Virus record (IMG/VR): IMGVR_UViG_2627854066_000006
Direction: 5' to 3' (one strand)
Length of the DNA: 44,766 nucleotides
Source: a virus
Lineage: Duplodnaviria > Heunggongvirae > Uroviricota > Caudoviricetes
Every line of letters starts with the position of its first letter. Positions within the stretch are counted from its first letter, which is position 1. The translations under genes and the position numbers were made by a program. The notes beneath the pieces were generated by a model. That model was not told the origin of the DNA. It did not search any database and saw nothing but the letters and a program-made list of their open reading frames with translations. Below are positions 892 to 44,766 of the stretch, in pieces.

Positions 892-981
892 GGAGAGATG
901 CCGGAGCGGCTGAACGGACCGGTCTCGAAAACCGGAGTGGGGGCAACTCCACCGGGGGTTCAAATCCCCCTCTCTCCGCCA
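892..981 (+). tRNA. serU: tRNA-Ser, anticodon CGA, long variable arm, 3' CCA encoded
   Basis: GGAGAGATGCCGGAGCGGCTGAACGGACCGGTCTCGAAAACCGGAGTGGGGGCAACTCCACCGGGGGTTCAAATCCCCCTCTCTCCGCCA: acceptor stem pairs with the 3' end, anticodon loop CUCGAAA, class II variable arm. Integrase gene lies immediately 3'. Confidence 0.9.
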
Positions 982-1033
982 AAATTCAATCACTTACACA
1001 TCATTAAGTCAGTGACAAAAATCACACTTGGAA

Positions 1034-2059
1034 TTACTTGGAATATTTTCTTGGAATATTTTCAGGTAACGGGACATCAAGTGTTGGTGAAACTTTAACC
1101 TTCCTGTCATAGATTAGCACTTGCCCTTCGGTTTTGTGACCAGAGAAAAGTTGCTTATCCCGGCTGCTTCCTTCATAGTCTGAAATTCCTTTCGCCTTCA
1201 GATCATGAAAGGTGAAGTCGGTTAAAATACCTGAAATTTTTCCAGCACGATTTCTTGCATCTACCCACATTTCGTTAAAGCCTTTGTACATATATCGGTT
1301 GCCGTATTGATTGCTGATCACATAGGCAGATTTTGGTAACTGTTTTGCTTTTTCGATCGCTGCCTGTAATCGTGGACTCCATGCTTTTATCTGTTTTTTT
1401 CCGGTTTTCCCTTGCTGGATGAATATCCCGTTGTTTCCAATCTGTTCCCATTTCAGCGATAACACATCGGAAACCCTCGCTGCACACAGATAGGCAATTT
1501 CCATTGCGATAAAAACAGGAAGAGGTGCAACGCTTAATACTGCCTGGTATTCTTTGTCGGTTACATATCGTTCGCGGTTTTTGGCCTTGAATTTACTTAC
1601 ACCTGCACATGGGTTAGCCTTCACGTACCCTCGCTCATACCCCCAACTGTAAACACGGGACATACTGCTTTTTTCATGGTTGGCTTGCGTTTTACTCTGC
1701 TCCCCTCTTTTGTCCATGTATCGACGGATGTGTTCTGGTTTTATGGAATCCGCTGGTACCTTACCGAATACGGCAAGCAACTTTTTTTGATGTTGCAGAT
1801 AATCTTTTTGTGTTCTTGGACTAAGGTCACTGTAATAGGCGCTGGCGAGGAATTTTTCCCACAAGCGACCGAATGTCATTGCACGATCGCGATTATTTAC
1901 AGTTTCCTCATACTTTTTCCATAAAGCAGCTAAACCATCCTTGATGGCGGTTAGTGTGACAGATTCTCTGGATGTTGGTTTCCATACATAACTATATTTA
2001 TTTGGGTATACATTTGGAGGTAATTTTTCGTGTTCAGGATTTTTCCTTCGTCTTCCCAT
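1034..2059 (-). CDS. int: Phage tyrosine integrase
   Basis: 341-aa ORF next to the tRNA 3' end; C-terminal region (HDLKAKGISDYEG...QLFSGHKTEGQVLIYDRK) resembles tyrosine recombinase catalytic motifs. Classic tRNA-int arrangement. Confidence 0.85.
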   Translation of the reverse strand: MGRRRKNPEHEKLPPNVYPNKYSYVWKPTSRESVTLTAIKDGLAALWKKYEETVNNRDRAMTFGRLWEKFLASAYYSDLSPRTQKDYLQHQKKLLAVFGKVPADSIKPEHIRRYMDKRGEQSKTQANHEKSSMSRVYSWGYERGYVKANPCAGVSKFKAKNRERYVTDKEYQAVLSVAPLPVFIAMEIAYLCAARVSDVLSLKWEQIGNNGIFIQQGKTGKKQIKAWSPRLQAAIEKAKQLPKSAYVISNQYGNRYMYKGFNEMWVDARNRAGKISGILTDFTFHDLKAKGISDYEGSSRDKQLFSGHKTEGQVLIYDRKVKVSPTLDVPLPENIPRKYSK

Positions 2060-2320: not shown

Positions 2321-4762
2321 TTAAAAATCAGCCTGACTCGAGATCAGTTTTTGCCAGATAGCTGAAACGTATTTTGCCTGGTAACGAGCGTCATCAAGTG
2401 CATTATGGCGCTCACCTTCGAATGGAATAGCCGTTCTGGCATCGAAGTCTATGGCTTTCCCCAGCTCAACGATTGTGCGTACATCGCGATCGTTGTAGTA
2501 ACGCCACGGGCAGGGGATCCCCTGCCGTTCGTATGAACGGCGCAAAATCGTGTTGTCGAAGTTGGCTCCATTTCCCCAGACCTGAACAAAAAATTCACCG
2601 GAGTTTTCGTCGATAAATTCCCGCAATTGTAACAGTGCATCATCTAACGGGATTTCATCGGTCATAATGGCAGATTGCGCTTCGCGTGATTGCTTAAGCC
2701 ACCATTTAATGGTGTCCCGATCAATGACTCCGCCAGCAGTTTCCAGATCGATAGTCTTACTAAATTCCGGTCCCATATCTCCGGTTTGCGGATCGAAAAA
2801 TATTGCACCTATTGAGATGATCGGGGCATCAGGATTTTTTCCCATGGTTTCAAGGTCGATCATTAGATGGTCACACGTCCTGCTGGTGGATGTGATTTCG
2901 TGATGACCGGTCACCTTAATTGAGTGATCTGCCGTCTCGCCAGTTTTATTATCGCTGGCGTGATGCTGATTGCCGCCAGGGTTCTCCTTGTGTGGATGTT
3001 CAGCGCCTTCCATTTCCTCCGGATCATTTTCCTGAACTTCAACCTGATTCTCTTCATCGAATGTTTCCTGGTATGTTGCGTCGCCCATCACCGCGCCACA
3101 ATCAGGGCAGTTGCCGCCACCGCTCTGACCGCAGGCGGTGCAGACTTTTTCCGGTTCCTGTTGCGCTACTGGTTCGGATTGTTTCGTTTCTGGCTCGTTT
3201 TGTAACGCATTTGGGCTATTTTGTTCCGCTTTTTGGTCGTTCCGTTCCGATTCATGCTGGTTCTGGTTCACAGAATCGCGAGTCTGGATCCCCTTGACCC
3301 ATTTCGGATCATTAGGGTCGCTAATCCCCTCAACAAATTCACCACGCGATACAGCAAGTAACTTATCGGCGTCAGGCTGGCTGATATTGGCTGCCTGCAT
3401 AATTTTGTTTACTTCGTCAGCGGTGACTTTTACTTGGTTAGCGGAACTCACCTGCGACTGAGCATCCAGCGACTGCGCGTTTTGGCCATGTTCAGTTGTA
3501 TCCGGTTCCATTGTTTCAGTTGTTGCCTGTTCACCTGCCATTGCGTCAGATGGTTGTGGTTTTTCTTCTTCTGTTTCACGCTCAGTAACCACCTCGCGGT
3601 TAATTTCTTCCAGGATATCTTTTTCCGGCGTATGCCGGGCAGCTGTGAGAGTTTCCTTGCTGGGGTTCTCGTGATCAGTTTCCGTCAAATAGGCGTTGAT
3701 ATACCCCTGAAGGCGTCCCGGGTAGTGATAAAATTCAGGGTGTGCGCTTCGGATAAGTGCAAAAATAGCGGCGCGGGAATAGTCCAGAATACCCGGGGTT
3801 GCACGAAGTGCTGCGGACCATTCTTTGAACGGACTTTCTTTGTTCAGGACTACTTCTTTTGCGCGACGATAAACGCTGCCCGGAATTTCATAAATATTAA
3901 AATCCATCGGAAGTGTGGCTGCTGCAATCTCCACATCCAGTGTGTCGAGGGTGTGTACTAAATTCGGATTGCGATCGGTTTTGTTCCCACCGCCAGCATT
4001 AGCACCGGAAGCCGTGCGGGTGATGCGTGAAACACGATTTCCTTTCATCCACTCTTTTGTCAGCAGACCCCGATCAGTGTAGTCAGCGTCCAGGTATGCT
4101 TCGAAAAAAGCAGTTATTAGTCCCAGGTCTGAATTACCAGGATTAGGGAAAACTTTGTCAGTGTCACGAACCAGTTTGTGGAGGTCGCGAATCTCCAGCG
4201 AGTCGAGCAGACTGGTTTTATGCGAAATAGCCAGGGCAGTAACAGCCGGTAGTTCTTCAGCCCGTGCAATGTGTAATGCCTGGAGTTCGTCGCGTGAAAC
4301 GTGCGTTACTGGTTTTTCGCTGCCGTGTTGAGCAAGCCAACGAATGGGCAGTTCCTGACCGGAGACAGGCAGAAGCATGCTCTCCTCAATCTCAGCCATG
4401 TCTTCGCCGTTGATGTTGGTATTGTCAGTGCTGGCTGGTTTGTCCTGAACAGAGGGGGAAGGGCCGATAAATGTCATTGTGATGCCATCTTTCCCGCCTT
4501 TTTCATAGCGGTTGCAGAATTCAGTATCAAACACGCCTTCTGGCGGAAGGTCGTCAACAACGGGCAAATTGACGCGGACGGGTTTTTTAAAGTCGTCTTC
4601 ATCATAATCGTTGTCATCCATTGCGGTAATGCAGCGGGAGATTGCAACAGATAATTTTTTTGCTGTAGTCCAGTAAAAACCACCTTTAATTCCTAGGCGT
4701 TTTCTTACTTTGTCATTTTTTGCTTCGCAATATAGTGCAAATTCTTCTTTATCAGTGCTCAT
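2321..4762 (-). CDS. Putative phage exonuclease (C-terminal DEDD-type 3'-5' exonuclease domain, central CxxC...CxxC zinc ribbon, acidic N-terminal region)
   Basis: 813-aa ORF. C-terminus MIDLETMG...[11 protein letters not shown]...[11 protein letters not shown]...HNALDDARY resembles DnaQ-like exonuclease motifs [20 protein letters not shown] zinc-ribbon motif. Sits where recE/exo sits in lambdoid early-left operons. Confidence 0.65.
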
Positions 4763-4855
4763 TATTGGTAAACCTCATCACAGATTTAAGGGTGAACAAA
4801 TCTCTGCCATTGCTGACATATAAGAATGAAACTGGATATTTATTACGGTGCTGTT

Positions 4856-5047
4856 TTAAAGACCTGCCGGGATTTCGTTATTATCCTGGTGAATAACTTT
4901 ATCGACCGGATAACAGTTGCCTGGAATTTTCTGTTCGGTTGCTGCTGCCATACATTCCTGCATTGTTCTGTGAACACTGACTGCAATATCAACTGGCTCT
5001 CCGGAAACAAGAAAAACCGTCAGAATAAGTGCAAATACTGGATTCAT
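4856..5047 (-). CDS. ydfD: YdfD-like small protein with N-terminal hydrophobic segment (Qin ydfD homolog, reported lytic when overexpressed)
   Basis: 63 aa from internal Met MNPVFALILTVFLVSGEPVDIAV...; ATGA overlap with the dicB stop. Matches recalled K-12 YdfD size and position. Confidence 0.6.
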   Translation of the reverse strand: MNPVFALILTVFLVSGEPVDIAVSVHRTMQECMAAATEQKIPGNCYPVDKVIHQDNNEIPAGL

Positions 5048-5232
5048 TGTGCACATCCTTTTGGCATCAGACGTAAACGGGCCAGCATTGAAACAATGCA
5101 TACTTTATTTAATAACTCCCGTTCGTGTTTTCTTTTGTTAATGGCATCTTCAGTAAATACAGGATTACTGATAGTGACACCAATTTCAAAACAACCTTCA
5201 GACGTATTAACGTTTGGTAATAACGTTTTCAT
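5044..5232 (-). CDS. dicB: Cell division inhibitor DicB
   Basis: 62 aa MKTLLPNVNTSEGCFEIGVTISNPVFTEDAINKRK...CIVSMLARLRLMPKGCAQ, matching recalled K-12 DicB almost residue for residue. Located downstream of dicF as in Qin. Confidence 0.8.
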   Translation of the reverse strand: MKTLLPNVNTSEGCFEIGVTISNPVFTEDAINKRKHERELLNKVCIVSMLARLRLMPKGCAQ

Positions 5233-5401
5233 TATCGCGCCCTCAACAATGAGTTTTGTGATGCGGTGCCTGGTGCCTCCAGGTGACGTTAACCAGTTAA
5301 CAATTAACGCCGGATACAGAGAATCCACCCATAACACTGTTTTTGGTTTTAACTGTTCCGCGTGCGCTTAGCCGCATTCACCGCATCACAAAATTCACTT
5401 T

Positions 5402-5459
5402 AAAAAGGGCGGCAGAGCAGTCACGGAGTAAAACTGATACCGCCAAACGTCACCAGAAA
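5402..5459 (-). ncRNA. dicF: DicF small RNA (ftsZ-targeting sRNA of the dicB operon)
   Basis: Minus-strand sequence TTTCTGGTGACGTTTGGCGGTATCAGTTTTACTCCGTGACTGCTCTGCCGCCCTTTTT matches recalled dicF and ends in a GC hairpin plus U-run. Lies between ydfC and dicB. Ends approximate. Confidence 0.75.
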
Positions 5460-5799
5460 ATTGATAACAGAGGGCGTTGCAGCGGGGTTGTCACTTAAGC
5501 GTATGGTCAACCTGACAACCAGGTGTCCTCAACGGGGAAGGAATAACCCCGCCATACTTACCGCCGCGCCATTTCGCGGAGTGCCACAACCGGAAGCGCA
5601 CGGCCGACGAAAATTTAACGACAGGCTATCTATGAACCAGCTACCTCGCCGTGCGCTTTCGCGTTATGGTCTGACTTTTCATGGAAATATCCTTTCAGTA
5701 AACTGTCAGTGCCGGATGCTCACCCGTGTCCGGCGCACGCACTCCACCTCACCCGTGGAGAACTCCTTAATTACCAACCTTAGCTTCGTTGGTTAGCTA

Positions 5800-6018
5800 T
5801 TAACGCGGGTATGTAATCATTCTGGCAATGCTTAATGCCGCTGCTTTTTCCAGCCTGGTGATATCCTGCTCCAGAGCGGACAGATTTTCAGCCTGCTTAG
5901 CCCTGGCTTCATTGGCCCATTTCAGATCCTGCGCTGCATTAATTTTCTGGCGCATCCACTCATAAAGTTCATCATCGGTATAATCTGGCGCGATGATGAC
6001 GGGTTCTCGTTTCTGCAT
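5800..6018 (-). CDS. ydfC: YdfC-like small protein
   Basis: 72-aa ORF MQKREPVIIAPDYTDDELYEWMRQK... with GAGGA RBS 7 nt upstream; position matches Qin ydfC. Confidence 0.6.
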   Translation of the reverse strand: MQKREPVIIAPDYTDDELYEWMRQKINAAQDLKWANEARAKQAENLSALEQDITRLEKAAALSIARMITYPR

Positions 6019-6047
6019 ACTGATTCCTCGCGGTGTTGCTTCGCTTA

Positions 6048-6176
6048 TCAGCCGTTAGATTTTGCCGAGCTGGAAAGCGCCTGTTTAAACTCACTGAAGC
6101 TGAGAGCTTCTTCGCCTTCGGCAAGGCCTTCGAAGTATTCTTCGTAAGCCTTTTCCATGATTGTGTCGAAATCCAT
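6048..6176 (-). CDS. ydfB: YdfB-like small protein (42 aa)
   Basis: Hand-translated (below the 60-aa track cutoff): MDFDTIMEKAYEEYFEGLAEGEEALSFSEFKQALSSSAKSNG. AGGTGGG RBS; start 1 nt after the ydfA stop. Confidence 0.5.
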   Translation of the reverse strand: MDFDTIMEKAYEEYFEGLAEGEEALSFSEFKQALSSSAKSNG

Positions 6177-6177
6177 A

Positions 6178-6333
6178 TCACCCACCTGAATTTCTTTCCA
6201 GCCAGCGACGCGCTCCAGATTCGGTTTTAAACGTTTTGCTTTTGGTATACGTCATTGCGGTGAACGTACCGTCCTGGTTGGGGAACACGCCACATACCAG
6301 AGATTCGCTGTTGCCAAGATTGATAGTATCCAT
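6178..6333 (-). CDS. ydfA: YdfA-like small protein (51 aa)
   Basis: From the internal Met of ORF 6178..6414: MDTINLGNSESLVCGVFPNQDGTFTAMTYTKSKTFKTESGARRWLERNSGG. GAGGT RBS. First gene of the ydfABC-dicF-dicB-ydfD operon. Confidence 0.6.
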   Translation of the reverse strand: MDTINLGNSESLVCGVFPNQDGTFTAMTYTKSKTFKTESGARRWLERNSGG

Positions 6334-6512
6334 GCTGACCTCATTTCCCCTTAACGCCGGGGTAGCGGAACAAAAACCTGCTGCATAGTTATTAAAGTTG
6401 AACCCTGCCGTCATGTTCTTACGCCTCGGGCTGGCTACTTAACCCCTGACCACTGCCTGGTAACTCGAAGTATTGCCCTGCATTCTGTGGGGCGGGGGGG
6501 GGCAGGCATATA

Positions 6513-6553
6513 ATGTACTTTGCGTTCATTGTTGTAAAGTACTTTTAGTACAT
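6513..6553. promoter_or_regulatory. Operator-like palindrome upstream of the ydfA-dicB operon
   Basis: ATGTACT (6513-6519) and its reverse complement AGTACAT (6547-6553), with inner GTACTTT / AAAGTAC repeats. Same ATGTACT core as the repressor/cro intergenic region. Confidence 0.35.
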
Positions 6554-6628: not shown

Positions 6629-7048
6629 TTAAGAGGCTTTTTGTTTTTTCTTTCGTGCTAACTCTTCGTAAATTGCATTGTACTTCTGTTTTTTCTCTTC
6701 AAGAGTTTTTAAAAGTTCATCTGTCTCACTGTCAGGGAGCTCGTCCAGAAGGTCAATGATGATTTTTTGTCTTGGATTTAACTCCTGATAGAAACGTACC
6801 TGTCCACTTTCTTCTGTATCCTCTCCCAAAAGATAGGTTGGTGTTGTTCCTATTAGTGTTGCTAATTCCCTTAATTTCTCCCGGCGAGGAATTGTTTCGC
6901 CATTAAACCATTTGCTAACCGCTTTTGGTGTTAATTTCATTCGACGGGCAATTTCTGCCTGCCTTCCATGTTGTTCATAACCAGCGTTTTCACAGGCTAG
7001 CGCAAGCCTACTGGCGAACTCTTTACGCGCTTTATCTTCATGAACCAT
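6629..7048 (-). CDS. DicA-like HTH repressor (XRE family, no S24 peptidase domain)
   Basis: 139 aa; HTH segment QAEIARRMKLTPKAVSKWFNGE; C-terminal IIIDLLDELPDSETDELLKTLEEKKQKYNAIYEEL resembles recalled DicA LLELFNALPESEQDTQLAEMRARVKNFNKLFEEL. Divergent from the cro-like gene. Confidence 0.8.
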   Translation of the reverse strand: MVHEDKARKEFASRLALACENAGYEQHGRQAEIARRMKLTPKAVSKWFNGETIPRREKLRELATLIGTTPTYLLGEDTEESGQVRFYQELNPRQKIIIDLLDELPDSETDELLKTLEEKKQKYNAIYEELARKKKQKAS

Positions 7049-7072
7049 AAGTTCAATGATATTCGCTCTTGA

Positions 7073-7111
7073 ATGTACTGTCAGTTCTGTTATAGCATGT
7101 ACTCAAAGTTC
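7073..7111. promoter_or_regulatory. Candidate operators in the divergent repressor/cro promoter region
   Basis: Two 15-bp direct repeats, ATGTACTGTCAGTTC (7073-7087) and ATGTACTCAAAGTTC (7097-7111), in the 79-bp gap between the divergent genes. Confidence 0.4.
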
Positions 7112-10252: not shown

Positions 10253-10489
10253 TTTTATGGATCACCTTTCTGATTGATTTCATATTGGCGAGGTGACGTG
10301 AGTTAAGTAGAATGGCTGCGGGTGCTTGAGGCTATCTGTCTCAGGCATGAACACTGAAAGGCAGATAGAGAAAAGCCCCAGTTAACATTACGCGTCCGGC
10401 AAGACGCTTAACATTAATCTGAGGCTCAATCTATGAACGGCAAATCTAGGTTAGCCTCTTACGTGCCGAAAGGCAAGGAGAAGCAGGCT

Positions 10490-10645
10490 ATGAAGCAGCA
10501 AAAGGCGATGTTAATCGCCCTGATCGTCATCTGTTTAACCGTCATTGTGACGGCACTGGTAACGAGGAAAGACCTCTGCGAGGTACGAATCCGAACCGGC
10601 CAGACGGAGGTCGCTGTCTTCACAGCTTACGAACCTGAGGAGTAA
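10490..10645 (+). CDS. hokD: Hok/Gef-family type I toxin
   Basis: 51 aa MKQQKAMLIALIVICLTVIVTALVTRKDLCEVRIRTGQTEVAVFTAYEPEE, as recalled for HokD/RelF. In-frame upstream extension to 10433 (mok-like leader). Confidence 0.8.
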   Translation: MKQQKAMLIALIVICLTVIVTALVTRKDLCEVRIRTGQTEVAVFTAYEPEE

Positions 10646-20312: not shown

Positions 20313-20494
20313 ATGTTTCTGATAATTCTCGCGCCACTGGTGGGCATGCTGGGTGCGCTTTTGCTGGCGTATGGTGCCTGGCTGATTTATCCCCGGCGGG
20401 TTTTGTTGTTGCCGGGGTGCTGTGCCTGTTCTGGTCGTGGCTGGTGGCGCGATATCTCGACCGTACACAGCCGTCTGTCGGCGGAGGTAAATAG
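20313..20494 (+). pseudogene. Small two-TM membrane protein gene between terL and portal, apparently frameshifted
   Basis: Frame 1 has RBS GAGGT + ATG and encodes [26 protein letters not shown]...; frame 2 continues ...[32 protein letters not shown] and stops in a TAGTG overlap with the portal start. Frames switch near the run TATCCCCGGCGGG. Confidence 0.3.
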
Positions 20495-21318
20495 TGTTCT
20501 TTTCGGGATTATTTCAACGAAAAAGTGACGCGCCGGTGACCACGCCAGCAGAGCTGGCGGATGCCATCGGGTTGTCTTACGACACCTATACCGGAAAGCA
20601 GATCAGCAGTCAGCGGGCCATGCGACTGACGGCGGTTTTTTCCTGCGTCAGAGTGCTGGCAGAGTCGGTCGGGATGTTGCCCTGCAATCTGTATCACCTG
20701 AACGGCAGCCTGAAACAGAGGGCCACCGGCGAACGTCTGCATAAGCTGATCTCCACGCATCCCAATGGCTATATGACGCCGCAGGAGTTCTGGGAGCTGG
20801 TGGTCACCTGTCTGTGCCTGAGGGGAAACTTTTACGCCTACAAAGTGAAAGCATTTGGCGAAGTGGCTGAACTGCTGCCCGTCGATCCCGGTTGTGTGGT
20901 ACCGAAGCTTAACAGTCGCTGGGAGCCGGTCTATCAGGTCACATTCCCGGACGGTTCCACGGATGTACTGAGCCAGGAAGATATCTGGCATGTGCGCACG
21001 CTGACGCTGGACGGTCTGGTGGGACTGAATCCCATCGCCTATGCCCGCGAGGCAATATCGCTGGCAGCAGCGACCGAAGAGCACGGGGCCAGACTGTTCA
21101 GCAATGGTGCGGTGACGTCCGGTGTGTTGCGTACAGAACAGACGCTGTCGGATCAGGCTTATGAGCGCCTGAAGAAAGATTTTGAGGAGCGTCACACCGG
21201 GCTTGGCAATGCTCACCGCCCGATGATCCTTGAGATGGGGCTGGACTGGAAGTCGATGGCGCTGAACGCCGAGGACAGCCAGTTCCTGGAAACCCGCAAG
21301 TTTCAGCTTGACGTATAG
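20494..21318 (+). pseudogene. Portal protein (HK97 family), N-terminal fragment; gene disrupted by IS91-family insertion
   Basis: GTG start with GGAGG RBS; 274 aa ending ...ETRKFQ then LDV-stop from IS sequence. The C-terminal 143 aa resume at 23017. Confidence 0.75.
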
Positions 21319-21481: not shown

Positions 21482-22690
21482 TCAGGCCGGCATATACCTC
21501 AGCAGACTGATATCCCGCGCGTTTTTCTTCAGCCCTGATACATTCAGCCCCGCAATGGCCCGGCGGTATACCATCCGGCCGCCACACAGCACGCATTCGA
21601 ACGGGTCACGACTCAGGAACTGTTTCACCATTTGTGCATAGCACACTTTCGCCACTGGTTCCGGCTTATCCATCCCCAGAGCACGGTACACCTGCGGCAG
21701 CTTCTCTCCACACACCCGGTTGGCAAGGAACCCGAAGTATCTCACCATCTTAAAAAACTTCTCCGGGATGTGCTGTTTCAGCCTCGCGACCAGCTCCCGC
21801 TGTGTCAGCGTTTCCGTCGCCGTTTCTCCCGTTTTGTGGTCCAGGTAACGGAAGCTCAGACTCGCTCCTCCGTTGTAATGCGCCAGCCGGGAAGCCGCTA
21901 TTGGTGGCTTCTTCAGATAACGACCCAGGTAGCGTGCCGTATTCCGCCCTCCGGCTGTCTTCTTCGACATGTACACATGCCAGTATTTTCCGCCGGCTTT
22001 CAGCACCAGGCTTCTCCACTGTGATTCCGTCGTGATATGTGACAACGATTCCGGCATCGCCAGACCTTCTGACCACGCTTTCAGAAGCAGCTGCCGCATA
22101 TTCCACATCCACCGCGAACGCATCGCGTCTTTCAGGAAGCTCAGCTTTTTCCAGTGTCCGTGTTTATTCAGACCTCCGCAGGTCACTGACACATGCACAT
22201 GCGGATGCCAGTTGAGACGACGGCCATACGTATGGATGGCGCAGAAGATACCGGGTTCCAGACCCCGTTTCCGGGCTGCATACAGCAGATTCTCCACCGC
22301 CAGACGGCACACGTCATTCAGCAGCCAGCGGTTGCTTTCGAACACCGGCCACAGCGTGTCCGGCAGGGTGAAGACCAGGTGCACCCAGTCGCAGTCAGGA
22401 AGACGATTCAGCTGTGTCGCTATCCACAGGTCTGTGGCCTTTTTTCCGCAGGACGGGCAGGCACGGCTGCCACATGAGTTAGTGACGTATCTGACGTGGG
22501 GGCACTCAGGTTTATCGCAGTTGTATTCCTTCACACCCAGTATCCGCGTGCCGCAGGCCAGCATTTTTGTGACAGCCTCAACCTCGATATCGCGCAGGCC
22601 GCCCGCATCCAGGAAGGATGTCCAGCACTGGTTGGCTGTGAACAGGCGTTTCAGCGGTCGGGGCTGAAAATCACCACCACTTCGGGTCAT
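21482..22690 (-). CDS. tnpA: IS91-family transposase
   Basis: 402 aa with N-terminal zinc-binding cysteines (CDKPECPHVRY...CGSRACPSCGKK) and HUH motif region HTYGRRLNWHPHVHV. Confidence 0.75.
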   Translation of the reverse strand: MTRSGGDFQPRPLKRLFTANQCWTSFLDAGGLRDIEVEAVTKMLACGTRILGVKEYNCDKPECPHVRYVTNSCGSRACPSCGKKATDLWIATQLNRLPDCDWVHLVFTLPDTLWPVFESNRWLLNDVCRLAVENLLYAARKRGLEPGIFCAIHTYGRRLNWHPHVHVSVTCGGLNKHGHWKKLSFLKDAMRSRWMWNMRQLLLKAWSEGLAMPESLSHITTESQWRSLVLKAGGKYWHVYMSKKTAGGRNTARYLGRYLKKPPIAASRLAHYNGGASLSFRYLDHKTGETATETLTQRELVARLKQHIPEKFFKMVRYFGFLANRVCGEKLPQVYRALGMDKPEPVAKVCYAQMVKQFLSRDPFECVLCGGRMVYRRAIAGLNVSGLKKNARDISLLRYMPA

Positions 22691-23016: not shown

Positions 23017-23448
23017 GTGGTTCAAGAAATCTGTCGTCTGTTCCGGGTGCCGTTGCACATGGTGCAGAACACCGATCGCGCCACCTTCAACAATATCGAA
23101 GAGCTGGGGTTGGGATTTATCAACTATTCACTGGTGCCGTATCTGACCCGCATCGAACAGCGGATCAACACCGGACTGGTACGAAAAAGTAAGCAGGGCG
23201 TTTATTACGCCAAATTTAACGCCGGGGCGTTACTGCGCGGGGATATGAAGTCCCGTTTTGAAGCCTACGCCACCGGGATCAACTGGGGAATTTACTCTCC
23301 CAATGACTGCCGCGACCTGGAAGATATGAATCCGCGTCCCGGTGGTGATGTCTATCTCACACCGATGAACATGACCACGAAACCCTCCGATGGCAGTAAA
23401 GCCGGTAAGCAGAAGGATAACGCCAATGCAGACGAAACAACGTCTTGA
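23017..23448 (+). pseudogene. Portal protein, C-terminal fragment
   Basis: Resumes VQEICRLFRVPLHMVQNTDRATFNNIEELGLGF...; in line with the N-fragment if the IS is removed. Confidence 0.7.
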
Positions 23449-44185: not shown

Positions 44186-44766
44186 TGGCATTCAGAATGA
44201 GTGAACAAGCACGGACCATAAAAATTTATAACCTGCTGGCCGGAACTAATGAATTTATTGGTGAAGGTGACGCATATATTCCGCCTCATACAGGTCTGCC
44301 TGCAAACAGTACCGATATTGCACCGCCAGATATTCCGGCAGGCTTCGTGGCTGTTTTCAACAGTGATGAGGCATCGTGGCATCTCGTTGAAGACCATCGT
44401 GGTAAAACGGTCTATGACGTGGCTTCCGGCGACGCGTTATTTATTTCTGAACTCGGCTCATTACCGGAAAATGTCACCTGGTTATCCCCGGAAGGGGAGT
44501 TTCAGAAGTGGAACGGCACAGCCTGGGTGAAAGATGCAGAAGCAGAAAAACTGTTCCGGATCCGGGAGGCGGAAGAAACAAAAAACAGCCTGATGCAGGT
44601 AGCCAGCGAGCATATTGCGCCGCTTCAGGATGCTGCAGATCTGGAAATTGCAACGGAGGAAGAAACCTCATTGCTGGAAGCCTGGAAAAAGTATCGGGTG
44701 TTGCTGAACCGTGTTAATACAACAACTGCACCGGATATTGAATGGCCAGTAGCACCTATAGGGTAA
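44185..44766 (+). CDS. tfa: Tail fibre assembly protein Tfa
   Basis: [54 protein letters not shown]... matches recalled lambda Tfa; ATAATG overlap with the stf stop; complete with stop at the window end. Confidence 0.85.

Follow-up and report, generated by a model that had tools for sequence, protein, structure and literature searches.

Is an operon that carries the cell-division-inhibitor genes of the Qin prophage also controlled as Qin is, and are its parts still intact? The question was raised by a 44,766-nt stretch of DNA from a virus of the Caudoviricetes (IMG/VR record IMGVR_UViG_2627854066_000006; hereafter, the window). An earlier note, made from the letters and a list of open reading frames (ORFs), had described in it a complete leftward ydfA-ydfB-ydfC-dicF-dicB-ydfD operon of the Qin type. 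The annotation of E. coli K-12 MG1655 was used as the reference, and K-12 features were mapped onto the window through alignment. We are highly confident that the locus is the early-left (PL-equivalent) operon of a lambdoid prophage at tRNA-Ser(CGA)/serU beside mtfA, with the dicBF cargo of K-12 Qin.

An intact dicBF cargo under a different repressor

The locus holds an intact copy of a well-studied cell-division-inhibitor module, and this copy is under a different repressor. Window positions 4771-6371 (minus strand) aligned to positions 1648470-1650070 of K-12 Qin without a gap, with 67 mismatches over 1601 nt (95.8% identity), and chance is ruled out as the source of the match. Every part is on the minus strand within 4856-6414 and follows the order of the K-12 Qin operon (ydfABC-dicF-dicB-ydfDE) as far as ydfD, which bears out the complete leftward operon of the earlier note. 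The three small ORFs that come first were identified by the alignment as ydfA, ydfB, and ydfC. The assignments of a DicB-like inhibitor, the DicF small RNA (sRNA), and a YdfD-like protein held as well, with Pfam or Rfam scores above the gathering scores and close identity to K-12 (Table 1).

The alignment to Qin dicB, dicF, and ydfABCD, which had been proposed as a check, left all five protein ORFs full length, with zero frameshifts over the 1601 nt. The reading frames are intact, as had been claimed, the sRNA, its seed sequence included, is the same as that of K-12 at every position, and the proteins are 90-100% identical. DicB shares 60 of its 62 residues with K-12 DicB (substitutions Q36H and I44V), and a protein identical to the window copy carries the name DicB in RefSeq. 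The N-terminus of YdfD, read from the sequence, is hydrophobic (MNPVFALILTVFLVSG).

The genes had been said to be chained by short gaps or overlaps. This is true of ydfA-ydfB (1 nt), ydfB-ydfC (29 nt), and dicB-ydfD (a 4-nt overlap) but not of the surroundings of dicF, which is flanked by non-coding spacers of 340 nt (ydfC-dicF) and 174 nt (dicF-dicB). The terminator hairpin attributed to DicF was recovered: the 3' hairpin, with a folding energy of -15.9 kcal/mol, precedes a run of UUUUU (5402-5406), as in a Rho-independent terminator. It was missed by a consensus terminator scan, and the Rfam structure and the fold were used instead.

One boundary had to be moved. The operon had been taken to begin at 6414, where an upstream ATG opens a 78-aa version of the ydfA ORF, but the start of ydfA is most likely at 6333, which gives a 51-aa protein. 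The sequence GAGGT lies 5 nt upstream of the ATG at 6333, and the RefSeq annotation of ydfA is the 51-aa form. The 78-aa form is unlikely because its extension is outside the K-12 homology, which begins only at 6371 (38 nt before the ATG at 6333), and because the frame is closed in a relative with the same immunity region (L039) by a stop four codons after the upstream ATG.

The label "Qin-type" fits the cargo and fails for its surroundings. The locus differs from Qin in its promoter, operators, repressor, Cro-like gene, downstream gene, and integration site. In K-12, DicA represses the operon promoter dicBp and Rem relieves the repression (PMC10448788). The control region of the window does not align to dicBp, and the window has neither a DicA/DicC immunity region with dicBp upstream of ydfA nor the chromosomal setting of the Qin locus, for which the flanking genes ydfE, intQ, rem, and relBE are the markers. 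The homology ends 8 nt before ydfE, and the position of ydfE is occupied by an 813-aa protein (2321-4762, minus strand) with an N-terminal Exonuc_VIII domain, a C-terminal Rv2179c-like 3'-5' exoribonuclease domain, and no similarity to ydfE. The repressor is a short helix-turn-helix (HTH) protein that is only distantly similar to DicA (Table 1). The Cro-like HTH protein showed no similarity to DicC, and its gene is followed by one for a YdaT-family protein.

The immunity region has its own operator-like sites. The motif GTACTN4GTWC (GTAC-N5-GTWC) occurs there four times, against 0.28 sites expected in the whole window. The sites form two pairs, each with its members 24 bp apart; in the PL-like pair, one site abuts the predicted -35 and the other overlaps the -10. 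These predicted sites have the layout of a lambdoid PL-type region, in which the PL-like and PR/PRM-like regions share operators that overlap the promoter hexamers, and all four are kept in Escherichia phage Tritos. This classic OL/OR arrangement suggests that the 139-aa repressor silences the operon through the predicted operators. The repressor itself would belong to the DicA/Gifsy class, which is not SOS-cleaved (PMC10448788), since it is short and Pfam found no peptidase domain in it. Another promoter-like sequence (7048-7084, minus strand; CTGACA, 17 nt, TATCAT; 10/12 matches) stops 7 nt short of the repressor ATG at 7048, and this spacing suggests a leaderless repressor mRNA, like that of lambda cI from PRM.

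At about 97% identity, the early-left region of Tritos (OV696610) has the immunity region, operators, dicBF cargo, and exonuclease layout of the window, and dicF is annotated there. Tritos differs in that it has another integrase and excisionase and was deposited as the genome of an isolated phage; the window prophage, in turn, has an IS91-family insertion in its portal gene.

The cargo is also very common in bacterial chromosomes. In a megablast search of the 1559-nt module against 5426 complete E. coli genomes, a match was found in 4764, with at least 80% query coverage in 2313. The median was two places per genome and the maximum ten. Ten of the 25 records listed, and thus at least 10 in all, were 100% identical to the module, and identical copies are annotated in RefSeq as ydfB, ydfC, dicB, DUF1391, and DUF1482. 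The module is real but ordinary, a textbook system that most E. coli carry in prophages.

Table 1 Positions of the operon parts, control elements, and structured RNAs in the window
Feature	Position	Strand	Length	Evidence
ydfD	4856-5047	-	63 aa	Small lysis protein; DUF1482, 87.9 bits, above gathering score; 57/63 identical to K-12
dicB	5044-5232	-	62 aa	Pfam PF05358, 135.4 bits (gathering 27), residues 1-62/62
STnc100-like structured leader, between dicF and dicB	5255-5395	-		RF02076, 38.8 bits (gathering 47)
dicF	5407-5459	-	53 nt	Rfam RF00039, 76.7 bits (gathering 48), model positions 1-52/52; 53/53 identical to K-12 b1574
Structured RNA domain directly 5' of dicF	5472-5592	-	~120 nt	Kept in >100 viral contigs and in phages; model R1, 146 bits
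Predicted long hairpin, candidate RNase III site	5594-5658	-		Minimum free energy fold; 11-bp perfect stem, 5648-5658 with 5594-5604
ydfC	5800-6018	-	72 aa	71/72 identical to K-12 YdfC; no Pfam family
ydfB	6048-6176	-	42 aa	42/42 identical to K-12 YdfB, 1 synonymous difference; no family score
ydfA	6178-6333	-	51 aa	DUF1391, 96.6 bits, above gathering score; 46/51 identical to K-12 (5 substitutions)
Predicted PL-like sigma-70 promoter	6510-6538	-		-35 TTTACA (6538-6533), -10 CATTAT (6515-6510); 9/12 matches
Operator-like sites, PL-like pair	6515-6527, 6539-6551			Bracket the predicted promoter; region 6510-6551
Short HTH repressor	6629-7048	-	139 aa	HTH_3, 37.9 bits; 29% identity to DicA over 112 aa, E 5e-15
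Operator-like sites, second pair	7075-7087, 7099-7111			Between the repressor and Cro-like genes

Expected action and alternative readings

In K-12 the operon is made as one RNA from dicBp, from which RNase III yields a 190-nt DicF species and RNase E the 53-nt form (PMC10448788). With an identical dicF and nearly identical proteins, the window copy is expected to have the same activities. In the lysogen, the DicA-class repressor would probably bind the paired operators over the -35 and -10 and keep the operon silent; once repression was lifted, a polycistronic RNA would be made. RNase III is expected to cut in the long hairpin near 5594-5658, a candidate site proposed because a 190-nt species ending at 5407 would start near 5596, within the 3' strand of the predicted stem. 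RNase E would cut in the AU-rich stretch just 5' of dicF. The two cuts would release the ~190-nt species and the 53-nt DicF, which share the intrinsic terminator as their 3' end. In transcripts that read through it, dicB and ydfD would come after a highly structured leader.

The products would then act as they do in K-12. DicF would repress ftsZ and also xylR, pykA, and manX. DicB would bring MinC to the septum and block division, and would also block the ManYZ-dependent entry of phage DNA. YdfD would inhibit IspG and cause lysis. In K-12, DicF represses ftsZ, xylR, and pykA, and induction of the whole operon stops growth on plates and lowers viability about 100-fold, mostly via DicB (PMC5069750). 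DicB works with MinC there (PMC10448788) and blocks ManYZ-dependent phage entry (PMC10448788; PMC6832061), and YdfD lyses cells through IspG inhibition (PMC8835842). By analogy with these results, it is reasonable to expect that the window module would be lethal if derepressed, as the earlier note proposed.

Several observations weigh against reading the locus as a working early-left operon. The proteins that were tested are those of K-12, from which YdfD differs by six substitutions and DicB by two. A promoter scan over 2.8 kb returned five promoter-like sites against 4.3 in shuffles, and the operon promoter agrees with the consensus at only 9 of 12 positions. No Rem antirepressor was found in the window by tblastn of K-12 Rem (best E 0.48), and the window contains no LexA box (CTGT-N8-ACAG). 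Just downstream of the predicted -10 (6480-6505, minus strand), the window reads CCTGCCCCCCCCCGCCCC; in every relative with this immunity region the sequence is CCTGCCACCCACCCCGCCCC or CCTACCACCCAC(C/T)CCGCCCC. The C-tract of the window, a C9 run, is 2 nt shorter than that of the relatives and unique, and it could be a real variant or a sequencing error.

Selection on the genes counts on both sides: the pooled values favour the reading, and the controls weaken the test. The ratio of nonsynonymous to synonymous polymorphism (pN/pS), pooled across viral contigs and taken relative to the window sequence, was 0.24 for ydfA, 0.12 for ydfB, 0.33 for ydfC, 0.21 for dicB, and 0.25 for ydfD. As controls, two spacer ORFs had values of 0.30 (a 111-aa antisense ORF at 5461-5796, plus strand) and 0.44 (a 36-aa ORF at 5491-5601, minus strand). 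At this divergence, the real genes are thus only weakly separated from structured non-coding DNA, and pN/pS cannot decide the coding status of the spacer ORFs because the controls are not clearly different from the genes.

The alternative that survives best concerns the role of the module. Its main role in the lysogen may be protective and not lethal, with DicB at low level or in a subpopulation excluding phages that use ManYZ and DicF retuning metabolism; we put the chance of this somewhat below even. Transient induction in K-12 gives protection against lambda, and about 1% of cells show spontaneous firing of dicBp (PMC6832061, PMC10448788). The retention of the module in most E. coli genomes, often in multiple copies, also fits a protective role. 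The sequence, however, does not distinguish the protective from the toxic reading, the two are compatible, and a different repressor may give a different leakiness.

Much less support was found for the idea that the module is a decaying, non-functional relic, with ORFs that are open by chance and an operon that is never expressed or is inactive, and we consider it very improbable. The prophage is probably defective, with a portal gene split by an IS91-family transposase. The integrase of an identical locus in strain CV839-06 is frameshifted according to the Prokaryotic Genome Annotation Pipeline (PGAP), and the pN/pS test was not decisive. These signs of decay are set against five full-length ORFs without a frameshift across 1601 nt, a dicF identical to the functional K-12 allele, the presence of the module at 97% identity in an isolated phage, Tritos, and a predicted promoter and operator architecture that is intact and conserved.

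That the window is the Qin prophage itself, the orthologous K-12 locus under DicA/DicC and Rem, has next to no probability: the cargo and its gene order speak for it, but it is refuted by the homology boundaries (38 nt before ydfA and 8 nt before ydfE) and by integration beside tRNA-Ser(CGA) and mtfA, and it also conflicts with the dissimilar repressor and Cro-like protein, the unrelated exonuclease in place of ydfE, the lack of a Rem homologue in the window, and the presence of terminase, capsid, tail-tip, and tail-fibre genes (portal split), since Qin lacks most head and tail genes (PMC10448788).

The surrounding prophage

The window is a nearly complete lambdoid prophage with an integrase gene and most structural genes retained. 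The tRNA-Ser(CGA) gene (serU) is at 892-981 (plus strand), and in the identical locus of strain CV839-06 the prophage adjoins tRNA-Ser and mtfA. tRNA-Ser(CGA) is the likely attachment site. The integrase ORF (1009-2059, minus strand, 341 aa) is directly beside this tRNA gene; it stops 25 nt before the limit of the frameshifted integrase that PGAP annotates in the CV839-06 locus.

The IS91-family transposase (21482-22690, minus strand) has 402 aa and the domains Y2_Tnp and Zn_Tnp_IS91. It is inserted on the strand opposite to the apparent portal gene, the flanks of which are at 20494-21318 and 23017-23448 (plus strand). Because the transposase splits this gene, the prophage is probably unable to make particles. 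Two further RNAs were recognized by Rfam. The sok antitoxin RNA is at 10320-10495 (plus strand, 111.9 bits), with hokD annotated beside it in the identical CV839-06 locus, and an IS009 RNA (44528-44726, plus strand, 225.6 bits) is inside the tail-fibre region.

Structured RNAs on both sides of dicF

Published work already covers the dicBF module along with its toxicity, processing, and spread through E. coli prophages, and the conserved RNA architecture around dicF is the sole lead with some novelty. Directly 5' of dicF is a structured domain of about 120 nt (hereafter, the pre-DicF domain), which corresponds to the 5' part of the published 190-nt DicF species. When phages were searched with BLAST, positions 5468-5590 of the window were more widely shared than the genes of the operon. 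Identity was 88.6% in phages Ayreon, cdtI, and Stx2c, 87.0% in 2H10, 81-85% in a Salmonella phage and an Actinobacillus phage, and 76-81% in P1/P7. In P1/P7 the domain is about 45 nt downstream of the C1-controlled Pban promoter, and part of it is annotated as a "dicF-like region". A motif scan of viral contigs recovered at least 120 stretches with the pre-DicF domain. Approximately 10 classes of tail follow it, each closed by a GC-rich hairpin with a U-run; the most frequent class is canonical DicF.

We propose a structure of five helices for the pre-DicF domain, including a pseudoknot (GUAUGG/CCAUAC). Over 57 distinct sequences, 96.3% of the cells in this model were paired, compared with 31-56% in slid controls. 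Eight pairs were changed on both sides, compared with 2.2 +/- 1.2 in shuffles (0 of 500 shuffles reached eight). The counts support the proposed structure and do not prove it, as the 57 sequences are close relatives, the search pattern had fixed part of the 5' strand, and the structure was derived from the same sequences.

The domain matched no family in an Rfam scan. With a covariance model built from its alignment (R1), the window gave a single hit, and the HK022 early region and Rac-SA53 gave none. The antiterminator RNA put of HK022 comes as paired putL/putR copies downstream of PL and PR. Homology of the domain to an HK022-type put RNA was rejected because R1 detected neither a second copy in the window nor any in the HK022 early region, and because HK022 was not among the best 60 of the 61 records matched in a BLAST search of the domain against the phage collection.

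The 174-nt spacer on the other side, between dicF and dicB, is also structured. Its multi-helix fold has an energy of -63 kcal/mol (z -4.96), and none of 200 shuffles was as good. Part of it matches the family RF02076, STnc100, with an E-value of 2e-6 on 2 kb over model positions 21-154 of 206. It is labelled only STnc100-like because the E-value is significant, yet the score is below the curated cut-off. STnc100 is a known prophage-associated RNA (bioRxiv 10.64898/2026.05.13.724894; PMC12370729), and a limited literature search turned up no paper that connects it with dicB. The closing stem of the element and its CCUGG hairpin show compensatory changes.

The non-coding skeleton of the operon is common to the kilR region of Rac and the ban operon of P1/P7, where the protein cargo is different. 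An STnc100-like element directly precedes a division-inhibitor gene there too, kilR in Rac-SA53 and tciA/terB in P1/P7. P1/P7 also resemble the window in having the pre-DicF domain just downstream of a repressor-controlled promoter, and differ in that another tail is found where the window has DicF. Rac-SA53 lacks the pre-DicF domain and has a weak DicF match (41 bits).

Tentatively, and with the odds on balance against it, both spacers of dicF could be read as portable structured-RNA modules rather than filler, which together make up one cassette of lambdoid and P1-like phages. In such a cassette, the pre-DicF domain may always lead into a tail that is variable and single-stranded, and then into an intrinsic terminator, with DicF merely the commonest tail, and the STnc100-like leader may directly precede the first host-killing gene (dicB, kilR, or tciA).

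For prophages that carry this system, the dicBF cargo recombines onto different immunity regions, and the annotation of such copies should therefore not assume control by DicA and Rem. Conservation reaches further in the non-coding parts of the operon than in its genes, which gives a testable handle on the production of DicF-type sRNAs and on the way in which transcription gets past the DicF terminator to dicB. If the cassette is real, early transcripts would be its source of different sRNAs, and it might also govern terminator read-through into the toxic genes.

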